Source of the DNA: Kineococcus radiotolerans SRS30216 = ATCC BAA-149
GTDB lineage: Bacteria; Actinomycetota; Actinomycetes; Actinomycetales; Kineococcaceae
Direction of reading: 5' to 3'
Assembly (NCBI RefSeq): GCF_000017305.1
Contig: NC_009664.2
Location: 1,350,001 to 1,382,000 of the forward strand
DNA: 32,000 nt
This document shows, one piece after another, positions 1 to 23,661 of the stretch (positions are counted from its first letter, which is position 1; each line of letters opens with the position of its first letter). The position numbers and the translations under genes are program-made. Under the pieces are notes generated by a model. It ran no database searches and was not told the origin of the DNA. It saw only the letters and a list, made by a program, of their open reading frames with translations.

Positions 1-502
1 CGACCGGGCGGGTCAGGAACCCGTCGGCGAGGGCCTCGGAGAACTCCCGGACCCCGCGGTCGTCGGCGAAGCGGAACGCGGTGCCGGGGCCGATCTCGGG
101 GACGAGGTAGTGGTAGTTCGTGTCGAACCACTTCGTCATCTCCAGCGGGGCGTCGGCCCCCCGCCCGCGGGCGATGGTGGAGTACCCGGCGAGGTCGACC
201 CGCCCGTCCTCCCCCACGACGTCGGCGAACCGCGGCGGGACCGCGCCGACCGCGACGGCGGCGTCGAGCACCTGGTCGTAGGCCGAGAACGCCGAGGGGA
301 TCGAGGCGTCGTGGGCGGGCAGGCCGAGGGAGTTGAGCCGGCGCACCGTGGCCGCCCGCACCCCGGCGAGGGCCCGCTCGGTGCTCGCGAGGTCGGCGCG
401 CCCGGCCCACAGCGCCTCGAGGGCCTTCTTGGCCTCGCGGTCGGCGCCGGTGCGGGGGTAGCCGAGGACGGTGGCGGTCCAGGCGGGGAGCTGTTCGGTC
501 AT
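1..502 (-). CDS. metE: Cobalamin-independent methionine synthase (5-methyltetrahydropteroyltriglutamate--homocysteine S-methyltransferase), N-terminal part; the gene runs off the window at position 1
   Basis: Reverse-strand translation from the ATG at 502-500 gives MTEQLPAWTATVLGYPRTGADREAKKALEALWAGR...GADAPLEMTKWFDTNYHYLVPEIGPGTAFRF. The 'EMTKWFDTNYHYLVPE' block is the classic MetE N-domain signature. It is absent from the ORF track because no stop lies in the window. Its ATG overlaps the metF stop (ATGA at 499-502). Confidence 0.9.
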   Translation of the reverse strand, partial: MTEQLPAWTATVLGYPRTGADREAKKALEALWAGRADLASTERALAGVRAATVRRLNSLGLPAHDASIPSAFSAYDQVLDAAVAVGAVPPRFADVVGEDGRVDLAGYSTIARGRGADAPLEMTKWFDTNYHYLVPEIGPGTAFRFADDRGVREFSEALADGFLTRPV

Positions 503-1452
503 CGTGCGGGTCCTCCTGCCGCGGCAGCCGTGCTGGCGCGGATCGGGTCGAGGGAGCGGGGCAGGTCGAGGTCGTCGAGCAGGTCGAGGGCCGGTTCGGC
601 CGCGTTGAACGTGTAGAGGTGGACACCGGGGGCGCCGGCGTCGAGCAGCCCGCGGGCCAGTCCCGCCGTGAACGCCGTCGCGGCGCGCCGGCGCCGGGGC
701 GCGTCGTCGGTGTCGAGCGCCGCCAGCAGCGGGACGGGGACGGGGACGCCGGTGAGTTCGCCGATCCGCCCCAGCCGACGGGTGCAGTCGGTCACCGCGA
801 CACCGGGCAGCAGCGGGATCCGCACCCCCGCCGCGCGGGCCCGGCGGACGAAGGCGGCGTACTCCCCGGCGGAGAACGTCACCTGGCAGACCGCGAAGTC
901 CGCGCCGGCGTCCTGCTTGGCGCGCAGCGCGGCCAGTTCGCCCTCGCCCCCGCGGGGGAAGGCGGCGACGGCGAGGCTCAGCGGGCCCTCGTCGACCGGG
1001 ACCCGCGCGCCCCGCAGGGCCGCCCGGCGCCGGTCGGCGACCTGGAGGAGTTCCACCAGGTCGCGGGCCGTGGCCACCCCGTCGGGGTGCGGGGTCCACC
1101 CCGCGTCCCCGGCCGGCGGGTCCCCGCGCAGGGCGAGGACGTTGCGGACCCCGGCGTCGAGGAACTCGCTGGCCAGGTCCACGACCTCGCGGCGGGAGGA
1201 CCCCACGCAGGTCAGGTGGGCCATGGCGGGCACGGCCGTCGTGCGGAGCACGTGGGCCAGCAGGTCCCGGCTGGGTCCGCGGGTGGCCCCGGCCGCGCCG
1301 AACGTGACCGACACGAAGTCCGGGCGGGCGGCGAGGAGGTCGGACAGCTTGCGCCACAAACCTTCCCGGGCGCTCTCGGAACGCGGGGGGAACAGTTCGA
1401 AGCTGAGGACGGGTCTCCCCGCCGCTCCGGCGACGAGGGGAGCCAGGGTCAC
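499..1452 (-). CDS. metF: Methylenetetrahydrofolate reductase
   Basis: 317-aa ORF with a GTG start at 1452. The N-terminus 'VLSFELFPPRS' and the blocks 'FVSVTFGAAG', 'AHLTCVG' and 'NVLALRGDPP' match the MetF family. It is translationally coupled to metE. Confidence 0.92.
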   Translation of the reverse strand: MTLAPLVAGAAGRPVLSFELFPPRSESAREGLWRKLSDLLAARPDFVSVTFGAAGATRGPSRDLLAHVLRTTAVPAMAHLTCVGSSRREVVDLASEFLDAGVRNVLALRGDPPAGDAGWTPHPDGVATARDLVELLQVADRRRAALRGARVPVDEGPLSLAVAAFPRGGEGELAALRAKQDAGADFAVCQVTFSAGEYAAFVRRARAAGVRIPLLPGVAVTDCTRRLGRIGELTGVPVPVPLLAALDTDDAPRRRRAATAFTAGLARGLLDAGAPGVHLYTFNAAEPALDLLDDLDLPRSLDPIRASTAAAAGGPAR

Positions 1453-1511
1453 CGCGGGCTGCCCGGGACCGGGACCGGGTAGGCGTCGACGACATCGGTG
1501 CTGCGCATCAC

Positions 1512-1608
1512 GAACTCCATCGGCCTGGCTTTAGCACCCTCGCCCGGGCTCGGGGGGTTGCTGCGGCGTCGTCGAGCCAGGACTCTCGGCCGCTCTGGAT
1601 GGTGTGGT
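1512..1608 (-). promoter_or_regulatory. SAM-I (S-box) riboswitch aptamer in the metF-metE leader
   Basis: Minus-strand read: ACACCATCCAGAGCGGCCGAGAGTCCTGGCTCGACGACGCCGCAGCAACCCCCCGAGCCCGGGCGAGGGTGCTAAAGCCAGGCCGATGGAGT. P1 is CCATC (1522-1518) pairing with GATGG (1603-1599 in plus coordinates). It carries the conserved S-box blocks AUC-AGAG-GG..GAGnG..UGGCnC..GA..CC..GCAACC and GGUGCUAAAnCC. It sits 66 nt upstream of the metF GTG. A near-identical core occurs at 7722-7820. Confidence 0.85.
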
Positions 1609-1612
1609 TCGA

Positions 1613-1642
1613 ATGTAGACCGGCACCGCGGCGCTCCACAAG
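1613..1642 (-). promoter_or_regulatory. Candidate promoter for the SAM-I/metF-metE transcript
   Basis: Minus strand reads TTGTGG (1642-1637), an 18-nt spacer, then TACATT (1618-1613). The -10 ends about 7 nt before the first P1 nucleotides. Sequence inspection only. Confidence 0.4.
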
Positions 1643-1756
1643 GGTTCCCCGGGAACACCGCCGGCGGTTCCCCCGGTCGGCCCCACCGGGGGTCCGGGAC
1701 GGCCCGCGACGCGCCGACCTTGCCGCCGGGCGGTGGTTCGTGGCAACCTCGCCGCA

Positions 1757-1870
1757 GGTCATGAGCGCCAGCGACAAGCCCCGGCTCGCTGGCCGGCAAC
1801 CCTCCTCCGCGGCGGGGTGCCCCGGGTGACGACCTGGCCGGTGCCGACGTGGCGCCGGCAAGCGCGGACC
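1757..1870 (+). promoter_or_regulatory. SAM-IV riboswitch aptamer
   Basis: GGTCATGAGCGCCAGCGACAAGCCCCGGCTCGCTGGCCGGCAACCCTCCTCCGCGGCGGGGTGCCCCGGGTGACGACCTGGCCGGTGCCGACGTGGCGCCGGCAAGCGCGGACC. As I recall it, this matches the actinomycete SAM-IV consensus almost base for base (GGUCAUGAG.GCCAGCG.CAAGCCCCGGCU.GCUGGCCGGCAACCCUCC...GCGG.GGGGUGCCCCGGGUGA.GACC...GGCAAGCGCGG). It lies 55 nt upstream of the GTG at 1926. Confidence 0.9.
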
Positions 1871-1925
1871 TCGCCGGGGGAACCCCGGTCCTCCCGGCAG
1901 GGTCCTGTTCCCGAGGAGACCCGTC

Positions 1926-3272
1926 GTGACGACCACCACCCTGTCCCCCTCCCGCCCCTGTCCCGGGGCGGTCCACGGGCCCCTGCTGCCCGTCGTCGGC
2001 GCGGGCACCCGCGTCCCCCTCGCCCACGGCGGGGAGATCCCCTACGCCAACCTGGACAACGCGGCGAGCGCGCCGGCGCTGACCGCGGTCGCCGACCGCG
2101 TCGCGCAGGTCCTGCCCCACTACGCCAGCGTCCACCGCGGCGCCGGGTACCTCTCCCGCGTCTCGACCGCGCTGTTCGAGCAGGCCCGCGCGCAGGTCGG
2201 CGCGTTCCTCGGGGCCGGCCCCGACGACGTGGTGGTCTTCACCCGCAGCACCACCGACGCCCTCGACCTGCTCTCGCGCGCGGTGCCGACGGGGGCGCGG
2301 GTGCTGGTCGCCGACGTGGAGCACCACGCGAACCTGCTGCCCTGGCAGCGCTCGGCGCGCACCACCGTCGTGCGCGGCGGCGCGGACGCCGGGGAGACCG
2401 CCGACCTGCTCGAGGCGGAGCTGGCCACCGGGCGCTACGCCCTGCTGGCCGTCGCGGGGGCCTCGAACGTGACGGGCGAGGTGCTGCCGCTGCGCCGCCT
2501 CGCCCGGGCCGCCCACGCCGCGGGCGCGCGCATCGCCGTCGACGGCGCGCAGCTGCTGCCCCACCGGCGGGTCGACCTCGGCCGCGACGGGATCGACTGG
2601 ATCGCGCTGTCGGGGCACAAGCTGTACGCCCCCTTCGGCGCCGGGGCGCTCGTCGGCCGCCGCGACTGGCTGGACGCCGCCGAGCCCTACCTCGCCGGCG
2701 GCGGCGCCACGCTCGACGTCGGCCACGACGCGGTGCGGTGGGCCAGCGGCCCCGACCGCCACGAAGCGGGTTCCCCGAACGTCGTCGGCGCCGTCGCGCT
2801 GGCCGAGGCCTGCGCGACGCTGGCCGCGCTGCCCGCCGGGGCGCTGGAGGCGCACGAGGCGGCGCTGCGCGAGCGGCTGGTCACCGGCCTGGGCGCGCTG
2901 GACGGCGTCCACGTCGTCCGCCCGCACCCCGAGGACGCGGTGGGGGTGGTGACGTTCACCGTGCCCGGCCACCCGGCGTCGGCGGTGGCGGCCTACCTCT
3001 CGGCCGAGCACGGCGTCGGGGTGCGCGACGGGCGGTTCTGCGCGCACCGGTTCGCCGACGCCCTCGGCCTCGCCGAGGGCGGCCTGCGGGCCTCCACCGG
3101 GGTCGGCACCGGGTCGGACGAGGTGGACCGGCTGCTCGCCGCCGTCGCGCAGTTCGTCACCACCGGCCCGGCGCTGGAGTACGGGACCACCGGGGGGCAC
3201 TGGGGTCCGCTGACCGACGCCCGCCCCGCGCCGGAGTCCTTCCTGCCCTCCCCCGGCGGGGGCCGGGGCTGA
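1926..3272 (+). CDS. Class-V aminotransferase-fold PLP enzyme, cysteine desulfurase/selenocysteine lyase-like
   Basis: 448-aa ORF with SD GAGGAG at 1913-1918 and GTG at 1926. Motifs: 'NLDNAASAP', 'YASVHRGAGYLS', the PLP-lysine motif 'SGHKLYAPFGAG', and 'VRDGRFCAH', which aligns to the SufS/CsdA 'RxGHHCA' catalytic-Cys loop. Confidence 0.8.
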   Translation: MTTTTLSPSRPCPGAVHGPLLPVVGAGTRVPLAHGGEIPYANLDNAASAPALTAVADRVAQVLPHYASVHRGAGYLSRVSTALFEQARAQVGAFLGAGPDDVVVFTRSTTDALDLLSRAVPTGARVLVADVEHHANLLPWQRSARTTVVRGGADAGETADLLEAELATGRYALLAVAGASNVTGEVLPLRRLARAAHAAGARIAVDGAQLLPHRRVDLGRDGIDWIALSGHKLYAPFGAGALVGRRDWLDAAEPYLAGGGATLDVGHDAVRWASGPDRHEAGSPNVVGAVALAEACATLAALPAGALEAHEAALRERLVTGLGALDGVHVVRPHPEDAVGVVTFTVPGHPASAVAAYLSAEHGVGVRDGRFCAHRFADALGLAEGGLRASTGVGTGSDEVDRLLAAVAQFVTTGPALEYGTTGGHWGPLTDARPAPESFLPSPGGGRG

Positions 3273-3319
3273 CCGTGCCGCACCGACCGCCGAACCCACC
3301 GCCGAACCCGAGGAGAGAC

Positions 3320-3706
3320 GTGACCGGGACCACCGCGGAACCGCCCGAGGCGCCGCTCGTCGACGCCGCGACCGCCGCGCGCGCCGTCGCCGCGGGCGCG
3401 CTGCTCGTCGACGTCCGCAGCGACGCCGGCCGTGCGGCGGCGGGCGACCTGCCCGGGGCCGTCGTCGTGGCCAAGACCGAGGTGGCGCGCCGGTTCACCC
3501 CGGGCGGGCCGGACGCCGTCCCCGGGCTGACCGGCCGGGACCGGCCCGTCGTCGTGGTCTGCGGCTCACCCGCGGGCTCCGCTCCCGTGGCCGCCCAGCT
3601 GCTGGCCGCCGGTTTCACCGACGTCGTGCACGTCGACGGGGGGTTCCCGGCGTGGAAGGCCGCCGGGCTGCCCGCGGGCGGACCCGCGGACTCGACGGAG
3701 CCCTGA
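3320..3706 (+). CDS. Rhodanese-domain sulfurtransferase (single domain)
   Basis: SD AGGAGAG at 3311-3317 and GTG at 3320, 128 aa. Motifs: 'LLVDVRS', active-site loop 'VVVCGSPAGS' and 'HVDGGFPAWKAAGLP', typical of rhodanese. The 5' part of track ORF 1733..3706 is an out-of-frame artefact. Confidence 0.8.
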   Translation: MTGTTAEPPEAPLVDAATAARAVAAGALLVDVRSDAGRAAAGDLPGAVVVAKTEVARRFTPGGPDAVPGLTGRDRPVVVVCGSPAGSAPVAAQLLAAGFTDVVHVDGGFPAWKAAGLPAGGPADSTEP

Positions 3707-3724
3707 CCGGGCCCTGACGGGGTT

Positions 3725-3967
3725 TCAGGCCAGGGGTCCGCCGCCGGGCCGGGAACCGTCGCCCACCCCGTCGCGGCGCGCGCCGTCCAGCAGCGCGTGC
3801 AGCTCCGCCTCGAACTCCGCCCAGCTCAGCTCCCCCGGCCCGGGCTGCTCCTCCGCCTCCTCCGGCGGGAACCACGGGAAGCCCCACTGACCGTGCCCGG
3901 CCACGGCCAGGCCCGCGACGAGGGACGCGACCCAGCGCCCCACGAGTTCCCGCACCCGGTGCCGCAC
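3725..3967 (-). CDS. Small hypothetical protein (80 aa), family not recognised
   Basis: In-frame GTG at 3967 preceded by GAGGAGG 5 nt upstream. Third-position GC is above 90% inside the ORF and drops immediately upstream. Translation: VRHRVRELVGRWVASLVAGLAVAGHGQWGFPWFPPEEAEEQPGPGELSWAEFEAELHALLDG... It is the only plausible part of the 912-aa track ORF 3725..6463. Confidence 0.45.
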   Translation of the reverse strand: MRHRVRELVGRWVASLVAGLAVAGHGQWGFPWFPPEEAEEQPGPGELSWAEFEAELHALLDGARRDGVGDGSRPGGGPLA

Positions 3968-4111
3968 AACCGCCTCCTCATCGATCGGTGGGGAGCACTG
4001 TGACACACGCCGGGGCCGCCGCGGGGGGTTCTCGCCGAACCCGTCCCCACCGCCCGCCGACGCCCCTCCTCCCCCTCCCCGACCCCCTCCCCGACGCGAC
4101 CAGGAGCCCCG

Positions 4112-5158
4112 ATGCCGACCCCGTTCCACGTGTTCCTCGACGTCGACGGCGGCGGGTGGCACCCCGCCGCCTGGCGCCGTTCCCGCGTCACCCCCGACGC
4201 CGTGCTGTCCCCGGCCCGGCTGCGGGAGTTCGCCGTCACCGCCCAGGCCCAGGGCCTCACGGGGCTGACGTTCGAGGACGCCGCGGCGCCGGACCCCCGC
4301 AACCCCGTCGGGCACCTCGACGCCGTCCAGCGCGCGGCGTTCCTGGCCGGCACGACCGACGCGATCGGGCTGCTGCCGGTGGCGGCGACGACGTACGCGG
4401 AACCGTTCCACGTCGCCGCGCAGATCGCCTCCCTCGACCACTCCAGCGCCGGGCGGGCCGGCTGGCTGGCGACGACGTCGCCCGCGGCGGTGGCGCGCGC
4501 GGTGGACCTCCCGGTGGCGCCGGACCCGGCCGCGGAGCTCGCGGACGTGGTCCGGGCCGTCCGCGCGCTGTGGGACTCCTGGGAGGACGACGCGGTGGTC
4601 CGCGACGTCGCCACGGGCCGCTACGTCGACCGCGACCGCCTGCATCACGTCGACGTCGAGACGGCGGGCTGGTCGGTGAAGGGCCCGCTCACGGTGCCCC
4701 GCCCGCCGCAGGGCCAGCCGGTCGTCGTCGTCCACGAGCGCGACCTGAGCGGCGCGCCGGGGACGGCCGACGTCGTCCTCACCGGCGACGAGCGCACCCG
4801 CCGGAGCGCGGGCGGCCCGCTCGTCGTGCTCGACGTCGAGCTCGCCCTCGACACCGACGCCGCACCCGGGGCCGAGCGGGTCGCGGCCCTCGACGCCGAC
4901 GCGCCCGCCCCGGTGCGCGACCGGGTGCGCTGGACGGGGTCCGGCGAGGGCTTCGCCCGCTACCTGTGCGGGCTGGCCGGCTCCTTCGACGGCGTGCGCC
5001 TGCACGCCGCCGTGCTCGACGAGGACCTGCGGGCGCTGCTGCGCACCACCCTCCCCGCGCTGCGGGTGGCCCGGCTGCTGCAGCCCCCGCTGCCCGGGTC
5101 CACCCTGCGCACCACCCTCGGCCTGACCCGGCCGGCCAACCGGTTCGCGACGACCTGA
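4112..5158 (+). CDS. Luciferase-like (LLM) flavin-dependent monooxygenase; short, divergent NtaA/DszA-type paralogue
   Basis: 348 aa with SD AGGAG at 4102-4106. The N-terminus 'FHVFLDVDGGGWHPAAWRRS' and the blocks 'LDHSSAGRAGWLATTS' and 'PPQGQPVVVV' parallel blocks in the downstream full-length paralogue ('HFGVFFQG..', 'LDVLSGGRAAWNVVTT', 'SPQGHPVVFQ'). Confidence 0.7.
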   Translation: MPTPFHVFLDVDGGGWHPAAWRRSRVTPDAVLSPARLREFAVTAQAQGLTGLTFEDAAAPDPRNPVGHLDAVQRAAFLAGTTDAIGLLPVAATTYAEPFHVAAQIASLDHSSAGRAGWLATTSPAAVARAVDLPVAPDPAAELADVVRAVRALWDSWEDDAVVRDVATGRYVDRDRLHHVDVETAGWSVKGPLTVPRPPQGQPVVVVHERDLSGAPGTADVVLTGDERTRRSAGGPLVVLDVELALDTDAAPGAERVAALDADAPAPVRDRVRWTGSGEGFARYLCGLAGSFDGVRLHAAVLDEDLRALLRTTLPALRVARLLQPPLPGSTLRTTLGLTRPANRFATT

Positions 5159-5167
5159 GGAGCCCCC

Positions 5168-6496
5168 GTGAGCGACACCACCAGCGACCTGCGCTTCCCC
5201 GACGCCGTCGTGCACTTCGGCGTCTTCTTCCAGGGCGTCAACCACAGCACCGTCTGGTCCGACCCCCGCAGCGGTTCCCAGCTGCACCCCTCGACGTTTA
5301 CCCAGCTGATCCGCACCGCCGAGCGGGGCCTGTTCGACGCGTTCTTCCTCGGCGAGGGGCTGCGGCTGCGCGAGCAGCACGGGAGGATCCACGACCTCGA
5401 CATCGTCGGGCGTCCGGACGCGCTCACCGAGCTCGCCACCCTGGCGGGGCTGACCGAGCGCATCGGCCTGGTCGCGACCCAGAACACCACCTACAACGAC
5501 CCCGCCGACCTCGCGCGCCGCCTCGCCTCGCTGGACGTGCTGTCCGGGGGGCGCGCGGCGTGGAACGTCGTGACCACCGACAACGCCTGGACGGGGGCGA
5601 ACTTCCGCCGCGGCGGGTACCTCGACCACGCCGACCGCTACGAGCGCGCCGAGCGCTTCGTGACCCTGGCCCGCCGGGTCTGGGACAGCTGGGACGGCGA
5701 GGGGTTCGCGCCCGTCACCTCGGCCGACCGGTTCTTCGACGTCGAGATCACCCCCACCGTCCCGCGCAGCCCGCAGGGCCACCCGGTGGTCTTCCAGGCC
5801 GGCGACTCCCCCGCCGGGCGCGACTTCGCCGCCCGCTCGGCCGACGTGATCTTCTCCCGGCACGGGACCCGCCACGACGACGCGCTCGAGTTCGCCGACG
5901 ACGTCCGGCGACGCGTCGTGGCCGCCGGCCGGCCCGAGGACGACGTCCTCGTCCTGCCCGGCACCCAGATCGTCGTGGCCGACACCGAGGCCGAGGTCGA
6001 GGAGAAGGCCCGCTGGGTGCTGGAGCAGCAGGTCACCCCGGCGACGGCCCTGTCCCTGGTGGGCCAGGTCTGGGGCGAGGACCTCTCCGGCTACGACCCC
6101 GACGGCCCGCTGCCGACGCACGACCCCGTGATCGCCGTCGTCGACGGCACCCGCGGCGCCGCCCGTCAGGGCCACGACCCCCGCGCCATCGCGCAGCGGT
6201 GGCGGGCGGTCGCGGAGGAGAACAAGTACTCGCTGCGCGAGCTCGTGCTGCACCACTCCTCCGAACGCGGTTTCGCCGGGACCGCCTCGCAGCTGGCCGA
6301 CGAGCTCACGCACTGGGTGCGCAGCGGGGCCTGCGACGGGTTCAACGTCACCCCGTACCTGGTGCCCAGCGGGCTCGACGACATCGTCGACCAGCTCGTC
6401 CCCGCGCTGCAGGACCGGGGCGCCTACCCGGCCGGGTACGTGGGGACGACGCTGCGCGAGCACCTCGGGCTGCGCCCGCCGCTGACCCGCCGCTGA
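5168..6496 (+). CDS. NtaA/SnaA/DszA-family FMNH2-dependent monooxygenase
   Basis: 442 aa with SD GAGGAG at 5157-5162 and GTG at 5168. Motifs: 'LDVLSGGRAAWNVVTTDN', 'YERAERFV', 'PQGHPVVFQAGDSPAGRDFAARSADVIF' and 'FAGTASQLADELTHWV..GACDGFNV', typical of this family. Confidence 0.85.
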   Translation: MSDTTSDLRFPDAVVHFGVFFQGVNHSTVWSDPRSGSQLHPSTFTQLIRTAERGLFDAFFLGEGLRLREQHGRIHDLDIVGRPDALTELATLAGLTERIGLVATQNTTYNDPADLARRLASLDVLSGGRAAWNVVTTDNAWTGANFRRGGYLDHADRYERAERFVTLARRVWDSWDGEGFAPVTSADRFFDVEITPTVPRSPQGHPVVFQAGDSPAGRDFAARSADVIFSRHGTRHDDALEFADDVRRRVVAAGRPEDDVLVLPGTQIVVADTEAEVEEKARWVLEQQVTPATALSLVGQVWGEDLSGYDPDGPLPTHDPVIAVVDGTRGAARQGHDPRAIAQRWRAVAEENKYSLRELVLHHSSERGFAGTASQLADELTHWVRSGACDGFNVTPYLVPSGLDDIVDQLVPALQDRGAYPAGYVGTTLREHLGLRPPLTRR

Positions 6497-6512
6497 CCCG
6501 CCGTGACCGCCG

Positions 6513-6542: not shown

Positions 6543-6545
6543 GGT

Positions 6546-7517
6546 TCAGGAGGAGGTCTCCGCGCGCAGGAGGTCGCCGAGGTAGCGGGCGATCTCCCCC
6601 GGCCCCGAGCGCGGGGCGACGGCCTCCACGGCGGGGTTGTAGTTGGTGTTCGTGTTGATGTCGTAGGTCACCGTGCGCCCGTCGGCGGTCTCCATGAACT
6701 CGATGCCGGCGATCTCGACCCCGGCCGCGGCGAGGAGCTCCTCGTAGCGGCGGACCAGCGGGTGCTCGGCGGTGATCTCCTCGCGCAGCGCGAACGGCAC
6801 CACGTCCGGCACCTCGCACGCGTCGGCGGGGCAGAGCTCGAAGCTGCCGGCGGAGGTGTCGACCCGGACGGCGTACACGAACCGGCCCCCCACGAACTCG
6901 GCCCGGGTGACGAACGGCTCGGCCGAGCGCAGGAACTCCTGCAGCAGGGTGGTGCCGTCGGCGGGTTCCTCGAACTCCGGCGAGGCGACGTAGGCGTCGA
7001 AGTCCTCGTGGGTGTCGAACCGGCGCACCCCCAGGCCCTTGCCCCCCTGGTTGTGCTTGGTGATGAACGGCACCTCCAGCTCGCGGGCCCGGGCCGGGAG
7101 GTCCTCGCGCCCGAAGACGGCCAGCGTCCGCGGCACGTCGAAACCGTGGCGGCGCAGCAGCGCGTGCTGGGCGACCTTGCTGACCTCGAGCTCCACGACG
7201 CCGGTCCCGCCGACCACGCGACGACCCCACCCCTCCAGCCAGGCGAAGACGGCGCGGGTGAACTCCTTCGTCCGCGCGTGGTCGCGGGTGTGCGCGGACG
7301 CGCTGAGCCGCGACCAGTAGACGCCCGGCGCCGGTTCGGCGTCGAGGTCGATCGACCCGCCGGTGAGCAGGACCTCCTGGAAGGGGACGCCCTGCGCCCG
7401 GAAGGCCGCCTCGAAGGGCGGGAACCAGTCGGGGTTCTCGTGCACGACGTGGACGCGCGGTTCGGCGTCGGTCGCGAACGACCAGGCCGCGACGGGGTGG
7501 TCCTCGACGCTCGTCAT
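6546..7517 (-). CDS. ATP-grasp domain ligase (RimK/glutathione-synthetase-like fold), substrate unknown
   Basis: 323 aa. ATG at 7517 is preceded by GGAGGAGGAG. Motifs: 'FITKHNQGGKGLGVRRF', 'LLQEFL' and 'AGIEFMETADGRTVTYDINTNTNYN', typical of ATP-grasp nucleotide/Mg sites. The rest of the 1182-aa track ORF 6546..10094 is an antisense artefact. Confidence 0.8.
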   Translation of the reverse strand: MTSVEDHPVAAWSFATDAEPRVHVVHENPDWFPPFEAAFRAQGVPFQEVLLTGGSIDLDAEPAPGVYWSRLSASAHTRDHARTKEFTRAVFAWLEGWGRRVVGGTGVVELEVSKVAQHALLRRHGFDVPRTLAVFGREDLPARARELEVPFITKHNQGGKGLGVRRFDTHEDFDAYVASPEFEEPADGTTLLQEFLRSAEPFVTRAEFVGGRFVYAVRVDTSAGSFELCPADACEVPDVVPFALREEITAEHPLVRRYEELLAAAGVEIAGIEFMETADGRTVTYDINTNTNYNPAVEAVAPRSGPGEIARYLGDLLRAETSS

Positions 7518-7687
7518 GCTCGTGCTCCTCCTCCGGTGGGACGCGGGGCGCCCCGGGTGGGACAACGGTACGACCGCTCCCCGGGCCCGCCGTCCCCGCA
7601 CCCGGACGGGCCGGCCGGAGTGAAGCGCTTCCCGGGCCGGTACGGGCCGTTCCCGGCGGAAACCCCTGCGGGGCAGGCCCTCCGGGG

Positions 7688-7718
7688 TTCGACAACGCGA
7701 CCTCCGGTGGGTTACCGT
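7688..7718 (+). promoter_or_regulatory. Candidate promoter for the second SAM-I leader
   Basis: TTCGACA (7688-7694), a spacer of about 18-19 nt, then TACCGT (7713-7718). The -10 ends about 8 nt before P1 of the aptamer. Inspection only. Confidence 0.35.
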
Positions 7719-7721
7719 CCA

Positions 7722-7820
7722 GGTGTCCATCCAGAGCGACCGAGAGACCTGGCTCGTCGACGTCGCAGCAACCCCCTGATCCGTCAGGCGCGGGTGCTTC
7801 CGCCAGGACCGATGGGAGAA
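7722..7820 (+). promoter_or_regulatory. SAM-I (S-box) riboswitch aptamer, second copy
   Basis: GTGTCCATCCAGAGCGACCGAGAGACCTGGCTCGTCGACGTCGCAGCAACCCCCTGATCCGTCAGGCGCGGGTGCTTCCGCCAGGACCGATGGGAG. P1 is CCATC (7727-7731) pairing with GATGG (7811-7815). Its core blocks match the 1512-1608 copy. The two copies are visible in the ORF track as the shared peptide 'HPERPR[VD]LARRRRSNP' on opposite strands. Confidence 0.85.
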
Positions 7821-7985
7821 CCCGTGCGCACCGCCACACCCGGCGAGCGGCTCGTCCGCCGCCGCCACGTCGACCTCGGCCGGTTGAGCTCCTCCGCCTG
7901 TGCGGGGTGCTGACCCCCGTCCGTCGCGGCACCCCCTCGGACGAGAACCCTGCGCCGTCGTCGGCGCGACCACCGGAGTACCCCC

Positions 7986-10064
7986 GTGCCCTCGCCGTCC
8001 CCCCGCACGTCCACCCCGCCCTCCCCCACCTCCGACGCCCCCGCACCTCCCGCGCCCCGCAGCCTCTGCGTCGTCGGGGCGGGCCCGCGCACCCTGGTCC
8101 TGCTGCAGCGCCTCGGCGCCCACGTCGCCGCCTCCCCCGGGGAGCACCCGGGTCTCGACGTGCACGTCGTCGACCCGCACGACTCCGGCGCCGGCCGGGT
8201 CTGGCGGGAGGCGCAGGACCCGCTGCTCTGGATGAACTCCCGGGCGTGCGACATCACGGTGCTGCCGGACGACTCCGTGACCGGCCTGACCGGCCCGGTC
8301 GGGCCGGGACCCTCGCTGGCCGGGTGGATCGCGGAGAACCGCGCCGACCTCGTCCGCGACGCCGCCGCCGCCGGGGACGACCTGCTGCGCGAGGAGGTGC
8401 TGCGCAGCGAGCCGGGTTCGTTCGTGTCCCGGCGCCTGGCCAGCCGCTACCTGGCCGCGGCCTGGCGGCGCACCCTGGACGGGCTGCCCCCGGGCCTGCG
8501 GGTGCACCGGCACGCCCGCACCGTCGTCGACGTCGTGGACGCCGTGGATGACGTGGATGACGTGGACGCCGGGCCCGGGGGTGGGGACGGGGACGGCCGC
8601 CAGCTCGTGCACCTCGACGGGACCGGCGAACCCCTCGCCGTGGACGTCGTGCTGCTCGTGCAGGGCCACCTCGACGTGCACCCGGGTCCGCGCGAACGGC
8701 GGGCGGCGACGTTCGCCCGCGCCCACGGCCTCGCCCACGTCCCGCCCGGGTACACCAGCGACCAGGACCTCGACGTCCTGGTCCCGGGCAGCGACGTGGT
8801 GGTCGTCGGCATGGGACTGGCCTTCGTCGACCTCGTGGTCCGCCTCACCGAGGGCCGCGGCGGGCGGTTCGAGGAACGCCCCGACGGCAGCCTGGAGTAC
8901 CGCCCCAGCGGCCGGGAACCGCGGCTGCACGCCGGTTCCCGCCGCGGGGTCCCCTACCGCTCCAAGATCGGGTACCCGAGCCCCACCGACCTCGGCCTGC
9001 CGCGGTACTGCACCGCGAGCGCCGTGGAGGCCCGCCACGGCACCGGCCCCCTGGACCTGCGCGCGGACCTGTGGCCGCTCGTGGTCAAGGAGCTCGCCGG
9101 CGCGCACTACCGGGAGCTGTTCCGCACCCACCGCGAGCGCACCGCCCTGGCCCCGGCCGAGTTCGACGCCCGCTTCAGCCGCTCGCCCTGGGGCAGCGCG
9201 GAGATCGACGAGCTGATCGCGCGCGCGGTCCCCGACCCCGCCGACCGCTTCGACGTGACCGCCCTCGACCGCCCCCTCGACGGGTGGTGGGGGACCTCCG
9301 GCGACGAGGTGCACGAGCGGGTGCTGCGGCACCTGGAGGCCGACCGCGAGCGCCGGACGGACCCCCGCCACTCCCCCGACGCCGCCGTGGTCACCGCCCT
9401 GCTGTCCACCTACGTCGTCGTCGCCGGCCTGCACGCGGCGGGCCGGCTGAACGCGCGGTCCACCGCGCTGGACCTCGACGGCTGGTGGCACGGGTTCTTC
9501 AGCTACGTGGCGAGCGGGCCGCCGCCGCAGCGGCTGCGGCAGTTGTCCGCGCTGGCGCGGGCCGGGGTCCTCCGCTTCCTCGGCGCCGACGTGCGGGTGC
9601 GTCCCGACGCCGACGAGGGGGTCTTCGTGGCCTCCTCGGCCAGCGGCCCGCACGAGGTGCGCGCCCGCGGCCTGGTGGAGGCCCGGCTGCCGGTCGCGGA
9701 CCTGGAACGCACCTCCGACGTCCTGCTGACGCGGTTGCGCGGACGCGGCGAGGTGCGGGCCCACGAACTGCTCGACGGCGAGGCGCGGTTGTCCAACGGC
9801 CGCCTCGTCGTGGACGGGCGCGGGCGGCTGGTGCGGGCCGACGGCAGCGTCCACCCCCGCCGCTTCGCCACCGGCGCCTGGGTCTCCGGGGAGGCCGGCG
9901 CCCCGGCCTTCGCCCGTCCCGGGGCGGACGCCGAGGTGTTCCGCCGCGCCGACCGGCTGGCCGCGGACGTGCTGCGCGCCGGCCGCCCCGCTCCGCCCGC
10001 GCCCCGCGCGGGCACCACCCCCGCCGCGGCCCGCCGCGAGCTCCCCCGAGGACGAGGACGATGA
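7986..10064 (+). CDS. FAD/NAD(P)-binding domain protein (PF13454-like), function unknown
   Basis: 692 aa with GTG at 7986. The N-terminal dinucleotide fold is 'LCVVGAGPRTLVLLQRL' and a second Rossmann-like motif is 'VVVVGMGLAFVDLVVRL'. Its stop overlaps the permease ATG (ATGA at 10061-10064). Confidence 0.75.
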   Translation: MPSPSPRTSTPPSPTSDAPAPPAPRSLCVVGAGPRTLVLLQRLGAHVAASPGEHPGLDVHVVDPHDSGAGRVWREAQDPLLWMNSRACDITVLPDDSVTGLTGPVGPGPSLAGWIAENRADLVRDAAAAGDDLLREEVLRSEPGSFVSRRLASRYLAAAWRRTLDGLPPGLRVHRHARTVVDVVDAVDDVDDVDAGPGGGDGDGRQLVHLDGTGEPLAVDVVLLVQGHLDVHPGPRERRAATFARAHGLAHVPPGYTSDQDLDVLVPGSDVVVVGMGLAFVDLVVRLTEGRGGRFEERPDGSLEYRPSGREPRLHAGSRRGVPYRSKIGYPSPTDLGLPRYCTASAVEARHGTGPLDLRADLWPLVVKELAGAHYRELFRTHRERTALAPAEFDARFSRSPWGSAEIDELIARAVPDPADRFDVTALDRPLDGWWGTSGDEVHERVLRHLEADRERRTDPRHSPDAAVVTALLSTYVVVAGLHAAGRLNARSTALDLDGWWHGFFSYVASGPPPQRLRQLSALARAGVLRFLGADVRVRPDADEGVFVASSASGPHEVRARGLVEARLPVADLERTSDVLLTRLRGRGEVRAHELLDGEARLSNGRLVVDGRGRLVRADGSVHPRRFATGAWVSGEAGAPAFARPGADAEVFRRADRLAADVLRAGRPAPPAPRAGTTPAAARRELPRGRGR

Positions 10065-11050
10065 GCCGGACGACCGGGACCACCGCCACCACACCCGTCA
10101 CCACACCCGAACCCGAACCCGCCCCCGCGCCGCCCGCCGCCGCGGCCCCGGCGCTGCGGGTCCTGCCCGCCCGCCACCCCGGGCGCTGGGTCGCCACCGC
10201 CGCCGTGGCGGTGCTCGCCGCGATGGCCGTCCACGCGCTGGTGACCAACCCCGCGTGGGACTGGCCGACGGTCGGGGAGTTCCTGTTCTCGGCCACCATC
10301 CTGGAGTCGCTGTGGCTGACCGTGGAACTCACCCTGGTGGGCACCGCGATCGGCCTCGTGCTGGGAACCGTCCTGGCCCTCATGCGGATGTCGGGCAACC
10401 CCCTGCTGAAGGCGGTCAGCTTCACCTACGTGAGCGTCTTCCGCTCCGTCCCGCTGATCCTGCAACTGCTGTTCTGGTACAACATGGCGATCCTCTACGA
10501 CCGGATCGGTTTCGGCGTCCCCTTCGGGCCGCAGTTCTGGACGATCTCGACGCAGGACCTCATCGGCCCGGTGACCGCGGCGTTCCTGGGCCTGGGTCTG
10601 CACCAGGCGGCGTACTTCGCCGAGATCGTCCGGTCGGGGTTCCTCGCCGTCGACCCGGGCCAGCGCGAGGCCGCGGCGGCGCTGGGCATCCCCCGGCTGC
10701 GCCAGTTCCGCCGGATCCAGCTCCCGCAGGCCCTGCGCGTCATCGTCCCCACCACGGGCAACGAGGTCATCGGCCTGCTCAAGGGGACCTCGGTCGTCTA
10801 CGTCATGGCCCTGCCGGAACTCTTCTACCAGGTGCAGGTCGTCTACAACCGCACCGGTCAGGTCATCCCGCTGCTGCTGGTGGCGGCCGTCTGGTACTTC
10901 GTCCTGACCACCGCGCTGTCGGCGCTGCAGTGGCTCGTCGAGCGCCACTACGGGCGCGGGAGTTCCCGCGGTCCCGCCGGGACCCCCCTGCCGGGGCTGG
11001 TCCGCACCCTGCGCGCCGCCCGGGCCCGTCGTCAGGAGGTGTCGCGGTGA
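10061..11050 (+). CDS. Polar amino-acid ABC transporter permease (His/Glu/Gln/Arg/opine family)
   Basis: 329 aa with a Pro/Thr-rich N-terminal tail followed by TM helices. The EAA-type loop is 'GQREAAAALGIPRLRQFRRIQLPQALRVIVP'. Other motifs: 'TYVSVFRSVPLILQLLFWY' and 'GLLKGTSVV'. Confidence 0.88.
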   Translation: MSRTTGTTATTPVTTPEPEPAPAPPAAAAPALRVLPARHPGRWVATAAVAVLAAMAVHALVTNPAWDWPTVGEFLFSATILESLWLTVELTLVGTAIGLVLGTVLALMRMSGNPLLKAVSFTYVSVFRSVPLILQLLFWYNMAILYDRIGFGVPFGPQFWTISTQDLIGPVTAAFLGLGLHQAAYFAEIVRSGFLAVDPGQREAAAALGIPRLRQFRRIQLPQALRVIVPTTGNEVIGLLKGTSVVYVMALPELFYQVQVVYNRTGQVIPLLLVAAVWYFVLTTALSALQWLVERHYGRGSSRGPAGTPLPGLVRTLRAARARRQEVSR

Positions 11051-11841
11051 GCGCGGTCGCTGCGGTCGGTACGGCCAGCGAGCAGCCCGTCGTGCGTCTC
11101 GAAGGGGTGCACAAGCGGTTCGGGGCGCTGGAGGTGCTGCGCGGCATCGACCTCACGGTGGCCGCCGGCACGGTGACCGTCGTCCTCGGCGCCTCCGGCT
11201 CGGGCAAGTCGACGTTGCTGCGCACCGTCAACCACCTGGAGAAGGTCGACGCCGGGATCGTCGAGGTCAACGGCGAGCTCATCGGGTACCGCCGCTCCGG
11301 GCGGCACCTGCGCGAACTCCACGAGCGCGAGGTCCTGCGGCAGCGCTCGCGCATCGGGTTCGTGTTCCAGCACTTCAACCTCTTCCCGCACCTGACGGTG
11401 CTGGAGAACGTCGTGGAGGCGCCGGTGTCGGCGCAACGGCGCCGCCGCTCCGAGGTCGAACCCGAAGCGCGCGCGCTCCTCGCCCGGGTGGGGTTGTCGG
11501 ACAAGGCCGGCGAGTACCCGCGGCGGTTGTCCGGGGGCCAGCAGCAACGGGTGGCCATCGCCCGCGCCCTCGCCCTGAAGCCGTCGCTGGTGCTCTTCGA
11601 CGAACCGACGTCGGCGCTCGACCCCGAACTCGTGGGCGAGGTCCTCGACGTCATCCGCGACCTGGCCGTCTCCGGCACGACGATGGTCGTGGTCACCCAC
11701 GAGATCGGTTTCGCCCGCGAGGTCGCCGACCGCGTCGTCTTCCTCCACGAGGGGACCGTCGTCGAGGAGGGCAGCGCCGCGCAGGTGCTGGACGCCCCCC
11801 GCCACGAGCGCACCCGCGCGTTCCTCGCCAAGGTCCTCTGA
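11047..11841 (+). CDS. Polar amino-acid ABC transporter ATP-binding protein
   Basis: 264 aa. Its GTG overlaps the permease stop (GTGA at 11047-11050). Walker A 'GASGSGKST', Q-loop 'FVFQHFNLFPHLTVLEN', signature 'LSGGQQQRVAIARAL', Walker B 'LVLFDEPTSALD', H-loop 'VVTHE'. Confidence 0.92.
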   Translation: MSAVAAVGTASEQPVVRLEGVHKRFGALEVLRGIDLTVAAGTVTVVLGASGSGKSTLLRTVNHLEKVDAGIVEVNGELIGYRRSGRHLRELHEREVLRQRSRIGFVFQHFNLFPHLTVLENVVEAPVSAQRRRRSEVEPEARALLARVGLSDKAGEYPRRLSGGQQQRVAIARALALKPSLVLFDEPTSALDPELVGEVLDVIRDLAVSGTTMVVVTHEIGFAREVADRVVFLHEGTVVEEGSAAQVLDAPRHERTRAFLAKVL

Positions 11842-11935
11842 CCCGCCCACCCCACCCGTCCCACCCGGTCCGGCGACAGTGCCGGACCGCCCTGCCGGCC
11901 TGCCGCAGCGCAGGCCCGACCCCGAGGAGAACCCC

Positions 11936-12904
11936 GTGATCAGCCGCCGCACCTGGATCCTGTCGCTGGCCGCCGCCCCCGTGGTGCTGTCCGCCTGCGG
12001 TTCCGGGGCCGACGACCCCGCCACCGCCCCGGCGGCCGCCGCGACCCGGGGCGGCGTCGACACCAGCCCCGAGCAGACCGGCCGGATCGCGGTGCAGGCC
12101 GTGCCCGAGATCGCGGCCAAGGTGCCCCGGGCGATCCGGGACCGCGGAACCCTGGTCATCGGGACCACCGGCAACGGCAACCCGCCGCTGAGCTTCCGCG
12201 CCGACGACGACGAGACGGTCATCGGCATCGAACCCGACATCGCCCTGCTCGTCGCCGCCACCCTCGGCCTGGAACCCGAGATCCGGACCACCTCCTGGGA
12301 GAACCTCTTCCTGTCGATGGAGTCCGGCCAGTACGACGTCGGGTTCTCCAACATCACCGTCACCGAGGAGCGCAAGGAAAAGTACGACTTCGCCTCCTAC
12401 CGCGTGGACACCCTGGCCTGGGAGGTCGCGAAGGACTCCGACATCACGAGGATCGCCGGCCCGGCGGACATCGCGGGGCTGACGGTGTCGGTCGGCTCGG
12501 GCACCAACCAGGAGAAGGTCCTGCTCGACTGGGACGCGCAGAACGTGGCCGCGGGCCGGGAGCCGGTGAAGATCCAGTACTACCAGCAGGCCGCCGACAC
12601 CTACCTCGCCCTGAGGTCCGGGCGCATCCAAGCCAGCTTCGGCCCGAACCCGACCGCGGCCTACCACGCCGCGGTGGCCGGGGACACGAAGGTCGTGGGC
12701 CTCGTCCCCGGGGGCGGCACGGTCCAGGCCGCCATCGCGGCGACGACGCAGAAGGGCAACGGCCTCGTCGAGGCGCTCGCCGACGCGCTGAACCACCTCA
12801 TCGGGTCCGGGGCGTACGCGAAGACCCTGGAGCGGTGGAGCCTCGCCGACGAGGCCGTCCCCGCGTCCGAGATCAACCCGCCCGGCCTGCCCAGGACCGC
12901 GTGA
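11936..12904 (+). CDS. Amino-acid ABC transporter substrate-binding lipoprotein (family 3 SBP)
   Basis: SD GAGGAG at 11924-11929 and GTG at 11936. The signal peptide carries a lipobox, 'RRTWILSLAAAPVVLSAC'. 'GTLVIGTTGNGNPPLSF' and 'YDVGFSNITVTEERK' are typical of polar amino-acid binding proteins. The track start at 11879 is probably too far upstream. Confidence 0.85.
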   Translation: MISRRTWILSLAAAPVVLSACGSGADDPATAPAAAATRGGVDTSPEQTGRIAVQAVPEIAAKVPRAIRDRGTLVIGTTGNGNPPLSFRADDDETVIGIEPDIALLVAATLGLEPEIRTTSWENLFLSMESGQYDVGFSNITVTEERKEKYDFASYRVDTLAWEVAKDSDITRIAGPADIAGLTVSVGSGTNQEKVLLDWDAQNVAAGREPVKIQYYQQAADTYLALRSGRIQASFGPNPTAAYHAAVAGDTKVVGLVPGGGTVQAAIAATTQKGNGLVEALADALNHLIGSGAYAKTLERWSLADEAVPASEINPPGLPRTA

Positions 12905-12941
12905 GCACCGGGGAACTCCGCGCGCAGGTGCACCGCGACGG

Positions 12942-12969
12942 GGCGGCGGCCCGGGACCGGGCCGCCGCC
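12942..12969. terminator. GC hairpin after the ABC operon, between convergent genes
   Basis: GGCGGCGGCCCGG-GA-CCGGGCCGCCGCC has perfectly complementary arms (effective stem about 11 bp). It lies between the binding-protein stop (12904) and the flavin reductase stop (13000). Confidence 0.55.
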
Positions 12970-12999
12970 GCGCTCACCCCCTGAGCGGGGGCCGGGCCC

Positions 13000-13521
13000 T
13001 CAGACCCGCGGGCTGAGGGTCCGGAACCCCGAGGAGTGCCAGACCAGGGGTTCGGTGTCGGGGGCCAGACCGCTCGCGTGGACCCGGAGCAGGACCACGT
13101 CGTGGTCCCCGGCGGGGAACTCCGAGTGGATCGACGTCTCCAGCCACACCGGGGCGCCGTGCACGAAGTGCGCGCCGGTGCCGGTGGTGGTCGTCTCGAT
13201 GCCCGCGAACCGGTCGGCGGCCTTCGACGCCAGCTGCCGCGCGGCGAGGTCGTGCGCCTCCCCCAGCACCGAGACGCCGATGCGCGGCGCGCCCCGGAGC
13301 TTCGGCCAGCTCGTCGAGGTGTGCTGCACCGCGAAGAGCACCAGCGGCGGGTCCAGGGAGATCCCCACCTGGAAGCTGGACGCGACGAGGACGACGGGTT
13401 CCCCCTCCACGACCGCGGACAGCGCCGCCACCCCGGAGGGGAACAGCGCGAACGTCGACCGCAGGGCGGCCGGGTCGTCGGCGATGTCCTGCAGGACGAG
13501 GGGTTTCGCGTTCTCGGTCAC
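13000..13521 (-). CDS. Flavin reductase-like FMN-binding protein (split-barrel)
   Basis: 173 aa. GTG at 13521 with AGGAGAA upstream. 'FALFPSGVAALSA', 'VASSFQVGISLDPPLVLFAV' and 'RFAG' match the flavin reductase domain family. Confidence 0.8.
   Translation of the reverse strand: MTENAKPLVLQDIADDPAALRSTFALFPSGVAALSAVVEGEPVVLVASSFQVGISLDPPLVLFAVQHTSTSWPKLRGAPRIGVSVLGEAHDLAARQLASKAADRFAGIETTTTGTGAHFVHGAPVWLETSIHSEFPAGDHDVVLLRVHASGLAPDTEPLVWHSSGFRTLSPRV

Positions 13522-22584: not shown

Positions 22585-23661
<1,077 letters not shown>

Follow-up and report, generated by a model that had tools for sequence, protein, structure and literature searches.

Predicted sulfur-scavenging module with SAM riboswitches and a conserved leader peptide in a sulfur/methionine island of Kineococcus radiotolerans

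Introduction

Does a cluster in which genes for methionine synthesis, amino acid import and flavin-dependent oxygenation lie around three S-adenosylmethionine (SAM) aptamers act as one system for sulfur acquisition, or are its parts only neighbours? This question is raised by a stretch of 32,000 nucleotides from Kineococcus radiotolerans SRS30216 (contig NC_009664.2, positions 1,350,001 to 1,382,000, forward strand), in the following called the window. An initial annotation of its first 13.5 kb had proposed an organosulfur-to-methionine salvage locus with metF-metE, two luciferase-like monooxygenases (LLM; LLMa and LLMb), an ATP-grasp ligase, an amino acid ATP-binding cassette (ABC) importer and a flavin reductase. 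Our analysis indicates, with a probability of about 0.6, that the region is a sulfur/methionine island of four regulated units and that the third and fourth units form a module for scavenging under sulfur starvation, controlled by SAM and a leader peptide. The first unit would consist of a SAM-I aptamer, an upstream open reading frame (uORF), metF and metE, and the second of a SAM-IV aptamer followed by genes for a SufS-like enzyme and a rhodanese. LLMa and LLMb would represent the third unit. The fourth would comprise another SAM-I aptamer, a leader open reading frame (ORF), the gene of a flavoprotein termed FADN and a cystine-type ABC importer, with the flavin reductase gene in convergent orientation.

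Materials and Methods

Because ORFs overlap in all frames at the G+C content of the window (about 76%), genes were called by frame analysis of the third-position GC content (GC3) and named using Pfam and NCBIfam profiles. Riboswitches were detected with cmscan against Rfam, using the gathering scores as cut-off. A scan for consensus promoters and terminators was uninformative at 76% GC. For comparison we collected the surroundings of FADN homologues, 80 loci in all from about 15 genera of actinobacteria, mapped the proteins of the window onto them and counted partners within 10 kb; single loci are cited by number (L001 and so on). The context of the FADN paralogue was taken from paralogous loci of other Kineococcus species. 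Own covariance models were built from the Kineococcus SAM-I and SAM-IV matches and run against all loci. The census of leader peptides was performed with a core peptide pattern, which itself demands a Cys, over 86 sequences and with reversed-sequence controls.

Results

The genes for FADN, the importer and the LLM pair recur together. A full ABC importer was found in 41 of the 80 FADN loci and LLMb in 45; both LLM genes are present in 35 loci, and the importer plus the LLM pair in 27. Many Streptomyces and Kitasatospora loci show the order permease, FADN, permease, ATPase, substrate-binding protein, LLMa and LLMb on one strand, and in S. cattleya FADN, permease, ATPase, substrate-binding protein, LLMa, LLMb and a DUF1684 gene form one tight operon with minimal gaps. 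Therefore, the core of the island, the LLM pair together with the FADN-importer unit, is a conserved actinobacterial module. Genes for the SufS-like enzyme (4/80), the rhodanese (3/80) and metF (2/80) are found at few of these loci.

Conservation of the gene order, which the initial annotation had named as a check of its proposal, was found in part. The full order of the window recurs in Kineococcus sp. SYSU DK001 (L001) and the core in many genera, but other Kineococcus genomes are rearranged: K. vitellinus (L003) shows an altered order and no ATP-grasp gene, in Kineococcus sp. NPDC059986 (L002) the locus is split into two halves about 7 kb apart and contains a second LLM pair, and the order of a further Kineococcus locus (L085) is changed as well. 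The notion that the combination is unfamiliar was half right; it is widespread in genomes, but we found no paper characterising it, and none on the leader motif or on the FADN-importer-LLM module in Streptomyces.

Several genes of the island that lack an RNA element of their own in the window are preceded by a SAM aptamer in other genomes. SAM-IV is located directly 5' of LLMa-LLMb in L002 and in two Geodermatophilus loci (L014 and L024), ahead of a SufS-like-leader-FADN arrangement in L014/L087 (Geodermatophilus telluris) and ahead of transporter genes in L016 and probably in L050. SAM-I was found by our own model in Kineococcus only. That genes un-gated here are SAM-gated elsewhere ties the module to methionine and SAM status.

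These data bear on the explanation that the methionine genes, the LLM pair, the ATP-grasp gene and the reductase gene are unrelated operons which came to lie side by side by chance. The low counts of metF and SufS-like genes agree with it, as do those of the ATP-grasp gene (1/80) and of a flavin reductase gene (7/80), the failure to find an RNA element before LLMa, the ATP-grasp gene or the reductase gene, and the rearrangements within Kineococcus (L002, L003 and L085). However, it does not account for FADN, importer and LLM pair in 27 loci of many genera, often as one operon, nor for the SAM-IV aptamers that gate the LLM pair and the SufS-like-leader-FADN unit elsewhere. In addition, a paralogous Kineococcus locus (L086) has a nearby operon LLM-LLM-DUF1684-Aminotran_5-NifU, in which Aminotran_5 corresponds to the SufS-like protein, and the ATP-grasp gene is repeatedly found beside LLM genes and the gene of a Cys/Met pyridoxal phosphate (PLP) enzyme. 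A chance neighbourhood is in our opinion unlikely.

Two elements behind the third aptamer had escaped the initial annotation. The first structural gene is not that of the transporter but FADN, and a leader ORF lies between the aptamer and FADN (Table 1). The 3' strand of the P1 stem (GAUGGGAG, 7811-7818) holds the Shine-Dalgarno sequence of this ORF. The same holds for every SAM-I aptamer of Kineococcus: all end with GAUGG(G)AG(G) 4 to 7 nt before a start codon, and the Shine-Dalgarno sequence is thus part of the P1 3' strand. Three kinds of start codon follow, namely that of an NF042934 leader (in four species at the FADN operon, and also at two or three further loci), that of a 19-codon uORF whose UGA overlaps the metF start (three species), or directly that of a rhodanese gene. 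Further SAM-I/leader tandems of Kineococcus are located in L001 (19730-19904 and 18085-18179(-)), L003 (14346-14522(-)) and L002 (21392-21569(-)); one of the further tandems precedes a gene with a lipoprotein-like signal sequence, and one leader is a 36-aa variant (…GRGVVDLRRRSSTARR).

Orthologues of the window leader are present in L001, L002 and L003. It ends with SSSACAGC followed by the stop codon, and it matches weakly the Ms4527A family of Cys-rich leaders (NF042936, 18.7 bits). The small hairpins of the spacer behind it persist in L003 with a different sequence. A six-frame motif scan of the window revealed no second leader beyond 7824-7913. In L038, a metagenome-assembled actinomycete, a leader peptide comes after each of two SAM-IV aptamers; with SAM-I in Kineococcus and SAM-IV in L038, the combination of aptamer and leader therefore arose with two aptamer classes.

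The leader is not restricted to riboswitch loci. The core pattern gave 73 matches in 61 of the 86 sequences, compared with none in the reversed-sequence controls. The peptides are repeated several times per locus and are encoded in sense direction directly 5' of FADN, substrate-binding protein or LLM genes (LLMa or another LLM gene), with 4 to 450 nt to the next gene. All 74 scored leaders end with UGA, and C exceeds G downstream in 73 of them. Over the 80 nt that follow the stop codon, C averages 37.6 and G 21.7, compared with a background of 28.7 each; such a C-rich, G-poor skew is the usual signature of Rho-loading sites. The codon-position entropy of the leaders was uninformative, as the search pattern fixes several residues. 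In Streptomyces the leader reads LVTR[DSG]HIDFGRVWS[SAC][SA]C, is encoded on the strand opposite to FADN and heads a divergent binding-protein gene. There it is apparently leaderless (L081, L022, L029, L006, L021 and L077, at about 9640-9800(-)), with a TTGACG-like -35 element on the leader strand and a TTGACA -35 element for the FADN operon on the other, so that both are controlled from one compact, divergent region of about 230 nt.

One explanation of the leader is that of a passive landing pad: the SAM riboswitch would set its translation and thereby the Rho-dependent polarity, and peptide and Cys codons would carry no second signal, leaving a single input. In accordance with this, the window leader has just two, non-adjacent Cys codons, and the SAM-I aptamers of Kineococcus also gate the non-homologous metF-coupled uORF and, directly, a rhodanese gene. 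Moreover, riboswitches of M. tuberculosis use uORFs and Rho without amino acid sensing (PMC11260477, PMC12810186). On the other hand, the same conserved peptide is used without a riboswitch in most genera and must therefore have a regulatory content of its own. Every match also shows the UGA stop and a Cys close to the C-terminus, though the Cys had been demanded by the search pattern. A purely passive leader thus appears quite unlikely.

The only solved relative of FADN is the L-aspartate N-hydroxylase of Streptomyces sp. V2 (8cp2; 40% identity, E 2.6e-73, profile E 1.5e-150). FADN belongs to the same fold family and keeps the catalytic N62, R13 and R577 of 8cp2 as well as the NADPH/FAD architecture. 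In the hydroxylase the residues R266, R276, R409, R412, N413 and R416 form the aspartate entry chamber, and the exchange N413E alone abolishes hydroxylation (PMC10404684). In FADN the positions of R266, R276, R412, N413 and R416 are occupied by K327, L336, S474, T475 and V478; R409 is unaligned, and the alignment of the helical domain could be imprecise. Because the aspartate-binding residues are replaced, we read FADN as a class-B flavin monooxygenase acting on a different, less anionic substrate. A function as disulfide (cystine) reductase was ruled out because there is no invariant cysteine among 12 homologues. K. radiotolerans carries a FADN paralogue with 55% identity.

If FADN were a true L-aspartate N-hydroxylase, i.e. 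a nitrosuccinate synthase of the FzmM/CreE type, it would yield nitrosuccinate, nitrite or 3-nitropropionate for natural product or nitrogen chemistry and would have no role in sulfur metabolism. The relation to 8cp2 and the three retained residues argue for this function. The exchanged chamber residues argue against it, and domain scans of the FADN neighbour genes revealed neither a CreD-type nitrosuccinate lyase nor other biosynthetic domains. The operon instead contains a binding-protein-dependent importer, a SAM riboswitch and a leader with Cys codons, a catabolic or scavenging context, which makes aspartate hydroxylation very unlikely. Highly implausible is the assumption that the small ORF is the precursor of a ribosomally synthesised and post-translationally modified peptide with FADN, the LLM pair and the ATP-grasp protein as tailoring enzymes: conservation at the amino acid level (RxHIDFGRVWSxxC), C-terminal Cys residues and the flavoenzyme and ATP-grasp genes nearby would fit, but the peptide occurs in several copies per locus ahead of different sulfur genes, in sense direction within the 5' leader and directly behind SAM aptamers, its invariant UGA is followed by C-rich RNA, the ABC system imports and has a lipoprotein for substrate binding, the ATP-grasp gene is absent from 79 of the 80 loci, and the curated NF042934 model of NCBI labels the family as a cis-regulatory leader (cis_reg_atten).

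The best NCBIfam matches of all three ABC components are parts of cystine transporters, each below the equivalog cutoff. As the substrate-binding protein has a lipobox, the ABC system is an importer. It is of the polar-amino-acid type, and the likeness to ssu-type systems claimed initially did not hold: the transporter belongs to PF00497/PF00528 rather than to the NitT/TauT type of SsuEADCB, and an SsuD-type LLM is missing, since LLMb reaches 51.8 bits on the SsuD model compared with a cutoff of 518.

The LLMa and LLMb genes are 9 nt apart and their products are 35% identical over 146 aa. LLMb exceeds the cutoff of TIGR03860; LLMa matches only the N-terminal half of this model (positions 4-212 of 422) with 144.9 bits, under the cutoff, and is not a member. 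Among solved structures LLMb matches best NtfO2 (7e36_B, E 5.4e-72), followed by YtnJ/CmoJ (1yw1, 2.8e-61) and DszA (1.6e-58), and also an NTA monooxygenase, and LLMa matches NtfO1 (7e36_A, E 4.5e-26). NtfO1 and NtfO2 form a heterodimer that has been crystallised, with NtfO1 as its small partner (PMC8027225). As in this system, a short LLM gene adjoins a full-length NtaA-family LLM gene, and each protein of the window matches the corresponding chain. We therefore predict that LLMa/LLMb is a heterodimeric NtaA-family monooxygenase dependent on reduced flavin mononucleotide (FMNH2), in which LLMa is probably the non-catalytic partner and LLMb the catalytic subunit, and which has no RNA gate of its own in this genome. 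SnaA/SnaB is another heterodimeric LLM monooxygenase comparable to LLMa/LLMb. The known enzymes tailor polyketides or streptogramins, whereas the pair of the window lies in a context of sulfur metabolism. A hidden riboswitch 5' of LLMa was not found: Rfam at a relaxed E-value (3600-4200) and an unfiltered SAM-IV model (1-16000) gave only noise. The region directly upstream (4040-4105(+)) is extremely C-rich and G-poor (…CCCCTCCTCCCCCTCCCCGACCCCCTCCCC…), like the rut-like tracts after leaders, and no leader ORF precedes it.

Table 1. Features of the first 13.5 kb of the window; positions are those of the window.
Feature	Position	Strand	Evidence and remarks
metE (cobalamin-independent methionine synthase), N-terminal part, runs off the window	1-502	-	Translation MTEQLPAW...TKWFDTNYHYLVPE
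metF (methylenetetrahydrofolate reductase)	499-1452	-	PF02219, E 6.9e-55
uORF of metF, 19 codons, MRSTDVVDAYPVPVPGSPR	1449-1508	-	Read from the sequence; UGA stop overlaps the GUG start of metF (GUGA)
SAM-I aptamer	1514-1605	-	RF00162, 63.0 bits, E 1.4e-12; own model R1, 101.6 bits
SAM-IV aptamer	1757-1870	+	RF00634, 109.3 bits, E 1.5e-19; gathering score 38; model positions 1-116
SufS-like class-V PLP enzyme (cysteine desulfurase or C-S lyase type)	1926-3272	+	PF00266, E 4.9e-77
Single-domain rhodanese	3275-3706	+	PF00581, E 1.6e-12; active-site loop CGSPAGS
orf80, small conserved ORF between rhodanese gene and LLMa	3725-3967	-	GC3 frame signal; no family match
LLMa, short luciferase-like protein	4112-5158	+	PF00296
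LLMb, NtaA/DmoA-family FMNH2-dependent monooxygenase	5168-6496	+	TIGR03860, 356.1 bits (cutoff 279.7)
ATP-grasp protein, uncharacterised highly conserved family	6546-7517	-	Weak RimK-family matches only
SAM-I aptamer	7724-7818	+	RF00162, 50.0 bits, E 8.8e-09; own model R1, 105.8 bits
Leader ORF, 29 codons, MRTATPGERLVRRRHVDLGRLSSSACAGC*, GUG start, UGA stop	7824-7913	+	NF042934, 27.4 bits (cutoff 27; marginal)
C-rich, G-poor spacer with two small hairpins, candidate Rho-loading (rut) tract before the FADN ribosome-binding site	7914-7985	+	80 nt following the stop: C=40, G=22
FADN, 692-aa class-B flavoprotein monooxygenase, first structural gene of the operon	7986-10064	+	PF13454, E 4.8e-31
ABC permease, polar-amino-acid type	10061-11050	+	PF00528; best NCBIfam match cystine permease NF011680, 148.8 bits, below cutoff
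ABC ATPase	11047-11841	+	PF00005; best NCBIfam match TcyN (NF008428), 311.9 bits, below cutoff
Family-3 substrate-binding lipoprotein	11879-12904	+	PF00497, E 3.3e-25; cystine-binding NF008426, 101 bits, below cutoff; lipobox LSAC
Flavin reductase (HpaC/HsaB type)	13000-13521	-	PF01613 (Flavin_Reduct), E 2.9e-27; convergent with the FADN-ABC operon

The features of the region are compiled in Table 1. All three SAM aptamers reported initially are above the Rfam gathering scores and within 2-3 nt of the positions given before; both SAM-I aptamers span model positions 1-108 of RF00162 (gathering score 44.4). The positions of metF-metE, the two LLM genes, the ATP-grasp gene, the amino acid ABC importer and the flavin reductase gene were confirmed too. 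The description of LLMa, the ATP-grasp gene and the reductase gene as un-gated holds for known RNA elements: neither a riboswitch nor a leader ORF was found upstream of them, in the case of the ATP-grasp and reductase genes using Rfam and a six-frame motif scan.

The SufS-like and rhodanese genes behind the SAM-IV aptamer had not been noticed before. The SufS-like enzyme contains the motifs SGHK and RFCAH and reaches 264 bits with TIGR01979, below the cutoff. Control of these two genes by SAM-IV is the usual context of this aptamer in actinomycetes; S. lividans likewise has SAM-IV ahead of a gene annotated as cysteine desulfurase (PMC8079986). The adjacent orf80, which shows the motifs GHGQWGFPWFP and WAEFEAELHALL, was recovered by tblastn in L001 (63%) and L085 (47%). 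Its orientation is divergent to that of LLMa, and it breaks a possible read-through operon from SAM-IV. A leader-like ORF on the plus strand ending at 4003 was rejected, since it is not conserved in L001 and L085 and the conservation at this place is that of orf80 on the minus strand.

In the metF-metE unit the GGAG of the uORF sits in the 3' strand of the P1 stem of the SAM-I aptamer. L001 and L004 retain the overlap between uORF stop and metF start (AUGA or GUGA), and the peptide sequence drifts. An overlap kept despite peptide drift suggests coupling by termination and reinitiation, resembling that of ppe2 of M. tuberculosis. The ATG of metE overlaps the stop codon of metF, and in the orthologous locus L085 methylenetetrahydrofolate reductase is followed by Meth_synt_1/2 domains. 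In the paralogous locus L086 (12682-15664(-)) a SAM-I aptamer is followed by genes for a rhodanese, a Cys_Met_Meta_PP protein, a 405-aa protein with only the C-terminal domain of MetE (Meth_synt_2) and a methyltransferase; this gene run may represent an alternative route to homocysteine or methionine.

The ATP-grasp and flavin reductase genes, both part of the locus proposed initially, are weakly linked to it. Homologues of the ATP-grasp protein are 65-75% identical across Micrococcales, and LLM genes are neighbours of the gene in L083, L084 and L085. Its neighbour in Microbacterium is an LLM gene; in Curtobacterium an LLM gene and the gene of a Cys/Met PLP enzyme lie beside it. Whether it belongs to the module is doubtful, and it is at most a lineage-specific addition; a looser link of the family to LLM chemistry is possible. 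A homologous flavin reductase gene is located inside the operon in L050, and in Geodermatophilus an FMN_red gene takes its place, adjoining the LLM pair in L087. The flavin reductase is a candidate for the supply of FMNH2 to LLMa/LLMb.

Downstream of the island there are genes for a Na+/H+ exchanger (20595-21779(-)) and a DUF4032/Kdo-kinase-like protein (23727-25034(+)), both also present in G. telluris (L087, 12112-16636), which points to an older synteny of the wider region. A msiK RNA motif (22523-22582(+), RF01747, 61.7 bits) lies directly 5' of the gene for an msiK-type sugar ABC ATPase (22585-23661(+), MATVTFDKATRIYPG...), the standard arrangement. A Ser/Thr protein kinase gene (16249-18261(-)) and a gene for the GT20 trehalose-6-phosphate synthase OtsA (18354-19805(+)), also outside the island, show nothing unusual.

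Discussion

Based on family membership and gene context we propose the following pathway. Under starvation for sulfur amino acids the importer would take up a sulfur-containing amino acid, which FADN could oxygenate on sulfur or nitrogen. LLMa/LLMb would cleave a C-S bond with FMNH2 supplied by the flavin reductase. The released cysteine or sulfane sulfur would be handed toward homocysteine by the SufS-like enzyme and the rhodanese, and metF-metE would finish the synthesis of methionine. The initial proposal of organosulfur salvage is thus supported in part: there is a functional link between the LLM pair and the transporter operon behind the riboswitch, but the ATP-grasp protein and the reductase are not firmly connected to it.

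The nearest studied analogue is the S-alkylcysteine salvage of B. subtilis, encoded by snaA-tcyJKLMN-cmoO-cmoI-cmoJ-ribR-sndA (the ytmI operon) and the yxe operon, in which CmoO and CmoJ catalyse sulfoxidation followed by C-S cleavage (PMC10863075). The locus of the window would work in a similar way, with oxygenation before C-S cleavage: a cystine-type ABC importer lies beside an NtaA/DszA-family FMNH2 monooxygenase, a second oxygenase and a flavin reductase are present, and expression would be expected under sulfur limitation. It is not a member of this group, and the resemblance noted before stands as an analogy only. None of the genes from 1 to 16215 contains an Acetyltransf or amidohydrolase domain, i.e. 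the acetyltransferase and deacetylase are missing. The first oxygenase, which probably acts on S or N, would be of class B (FAD/NADPH), a relative of N-hydroxylases, instead of an LLM such as CmoO, the NtaA-type enzyme has a short LLM partner, and control is assigned to a SAM riboswitch and a leader rather than to CymR/YtlI.

Our model for the regulation of the FADN operon starts from the position of the Shine-Dalgarno sequence inside P1: binding of SAM would therefore block translation of the leader. In the presence of SAM, P1 would be closed, the leader would remain untranslated, Rho would terminate transcription and the operon would be off. At low SAM the leader would be translated, and a ribosome held near the Cys codons or the UGA could cover the C-rich tract and prevent Rho-dependent termination. 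The operon would then be on only if SAM and probably also cysteine are low.

More far-reaching, and tentative with the odds rather against it, is the reading that the NF042934 leader is a TnaC-like arrest peptide with which the ribosome senses cysteine or some other metabolite of sulfur. Behind a SAM aptamer whose P1 stem conceals its Shine-Dalgarno sequence, as in Kineococcus (SAM-I) and at least one other actinomycete lineage (SAM-IV), it would constitute a two-input RNA/peptide AND gate over an uncharacterised phylum-wide pathway, in which an amino acid is imported and its sulfur set free by FADN together with a heterodimeric NtaA-type monooxygenase. With E. coli's tna operon the leader shares a conserved peptide, an invariant UGA and a C-rich tract right after the stop, but there is no sequence similarity, and stalling and Rho dependence are only proposed here. 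A tna-like Rho model has been proposed for actinobacterial cys leaders by Seliverstov et al. (PMC1262725).

Two further systems can be compared. Like the polycysteine attenuators of the Ms5788A type, the leader ORF of the window is short, carries Cys codons at its C-terminal end and is part of the 5' leader of sulfur or cysteine genes, and it shows the weak NF042936 match. In the mycobacterial system the off state is left only if the ORF is translated; an untranslatable leader ORF locks the downstream genes off (10.1101/834739). In contrast to this type the ORF of the window lies behind a riboswitch, its two Cys are separated, it has a conserved core without Cys (RRHVDLGR), pairing of the Cys region with the ribosome-binding site is unsupported, and the rut-like C-rich tract points to Rho. 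The second comparison is with M. tuberculosis, where riboswitches control uORFs and termination depends on Rho, at B12 metE/ppe2 and Mbox pe20 (PMC11260477, PMC12810186). In both cases an aptamer controls initiation at a small ORF whose translation sets downstream expression, and the way in which the uORF stop overlaps the metF start recalls the termination-reinitiation of ppe2. The systems differ in that the ligand here is SAM (SAM-I in the window, SAM-IV in L038) and in that the leader family is widespread and also works alone, so that two signals may combine.

Several observations weigh against a SAM- and leader-controlled scavenging module. Conserved orf80 in antisense cuts the LLM pair off from the SAM-IV operon; because of this and since no RNA element was detected, co-regulation of the LLM pair is unproven in this genome. 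The ATP-grasp gene is near FADN in just 1 of 80 loci and the flavin reductase gene in 7. Substrate and reaction are inferred from family membership and context. Our SAM-I model was built from Kineococcus sequences only, and divergent SAM-I aptamers elsewhere could escape it. Unlike the validated mycobacterial attenuators, the leader is not leaderless, being preceded by a 95-nt aptamer and a Shine-Dalgarno sequence, and its two Cys codons are non-adjacent. The excess of C over G is an indirect sign of a rut site. Folding of the leader region was no better than that of shuffled sequences (minimum free energy z = -1.09), and duplex energies between the leader 3' end and the FADN ribosome-binding site were no better than those of shuffled controls in four of four orthologues; sequestration of this site by the leader 3' end is accordingly unsupported.

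Taken together, two points stand out most clearly as new, the conserved FADN-importer-LLM module and control by a SAM riboswitch layered with a leader peptide; both extend known systems. If the proposed reading is correct, actinobacteria possess a widespread route for scavenging sulfur from amino-acid-like organosulfur compounds, which would use a class-B relative of N-hydroxylases and a heterodimeric luciferase-like monooxygenase, neither of them with an assigned reaction. The locus would be a compact natural case in which a riboswitch is superimposed on a leader-peptide attenuator, and one mRNA leader would integrate methionine (SAM) and cysteine status. Thousands of database entries named FAD/NAD(P)-binding protein or LLM class oxidoreductase could thereby gain a context in sulfur metabolism.

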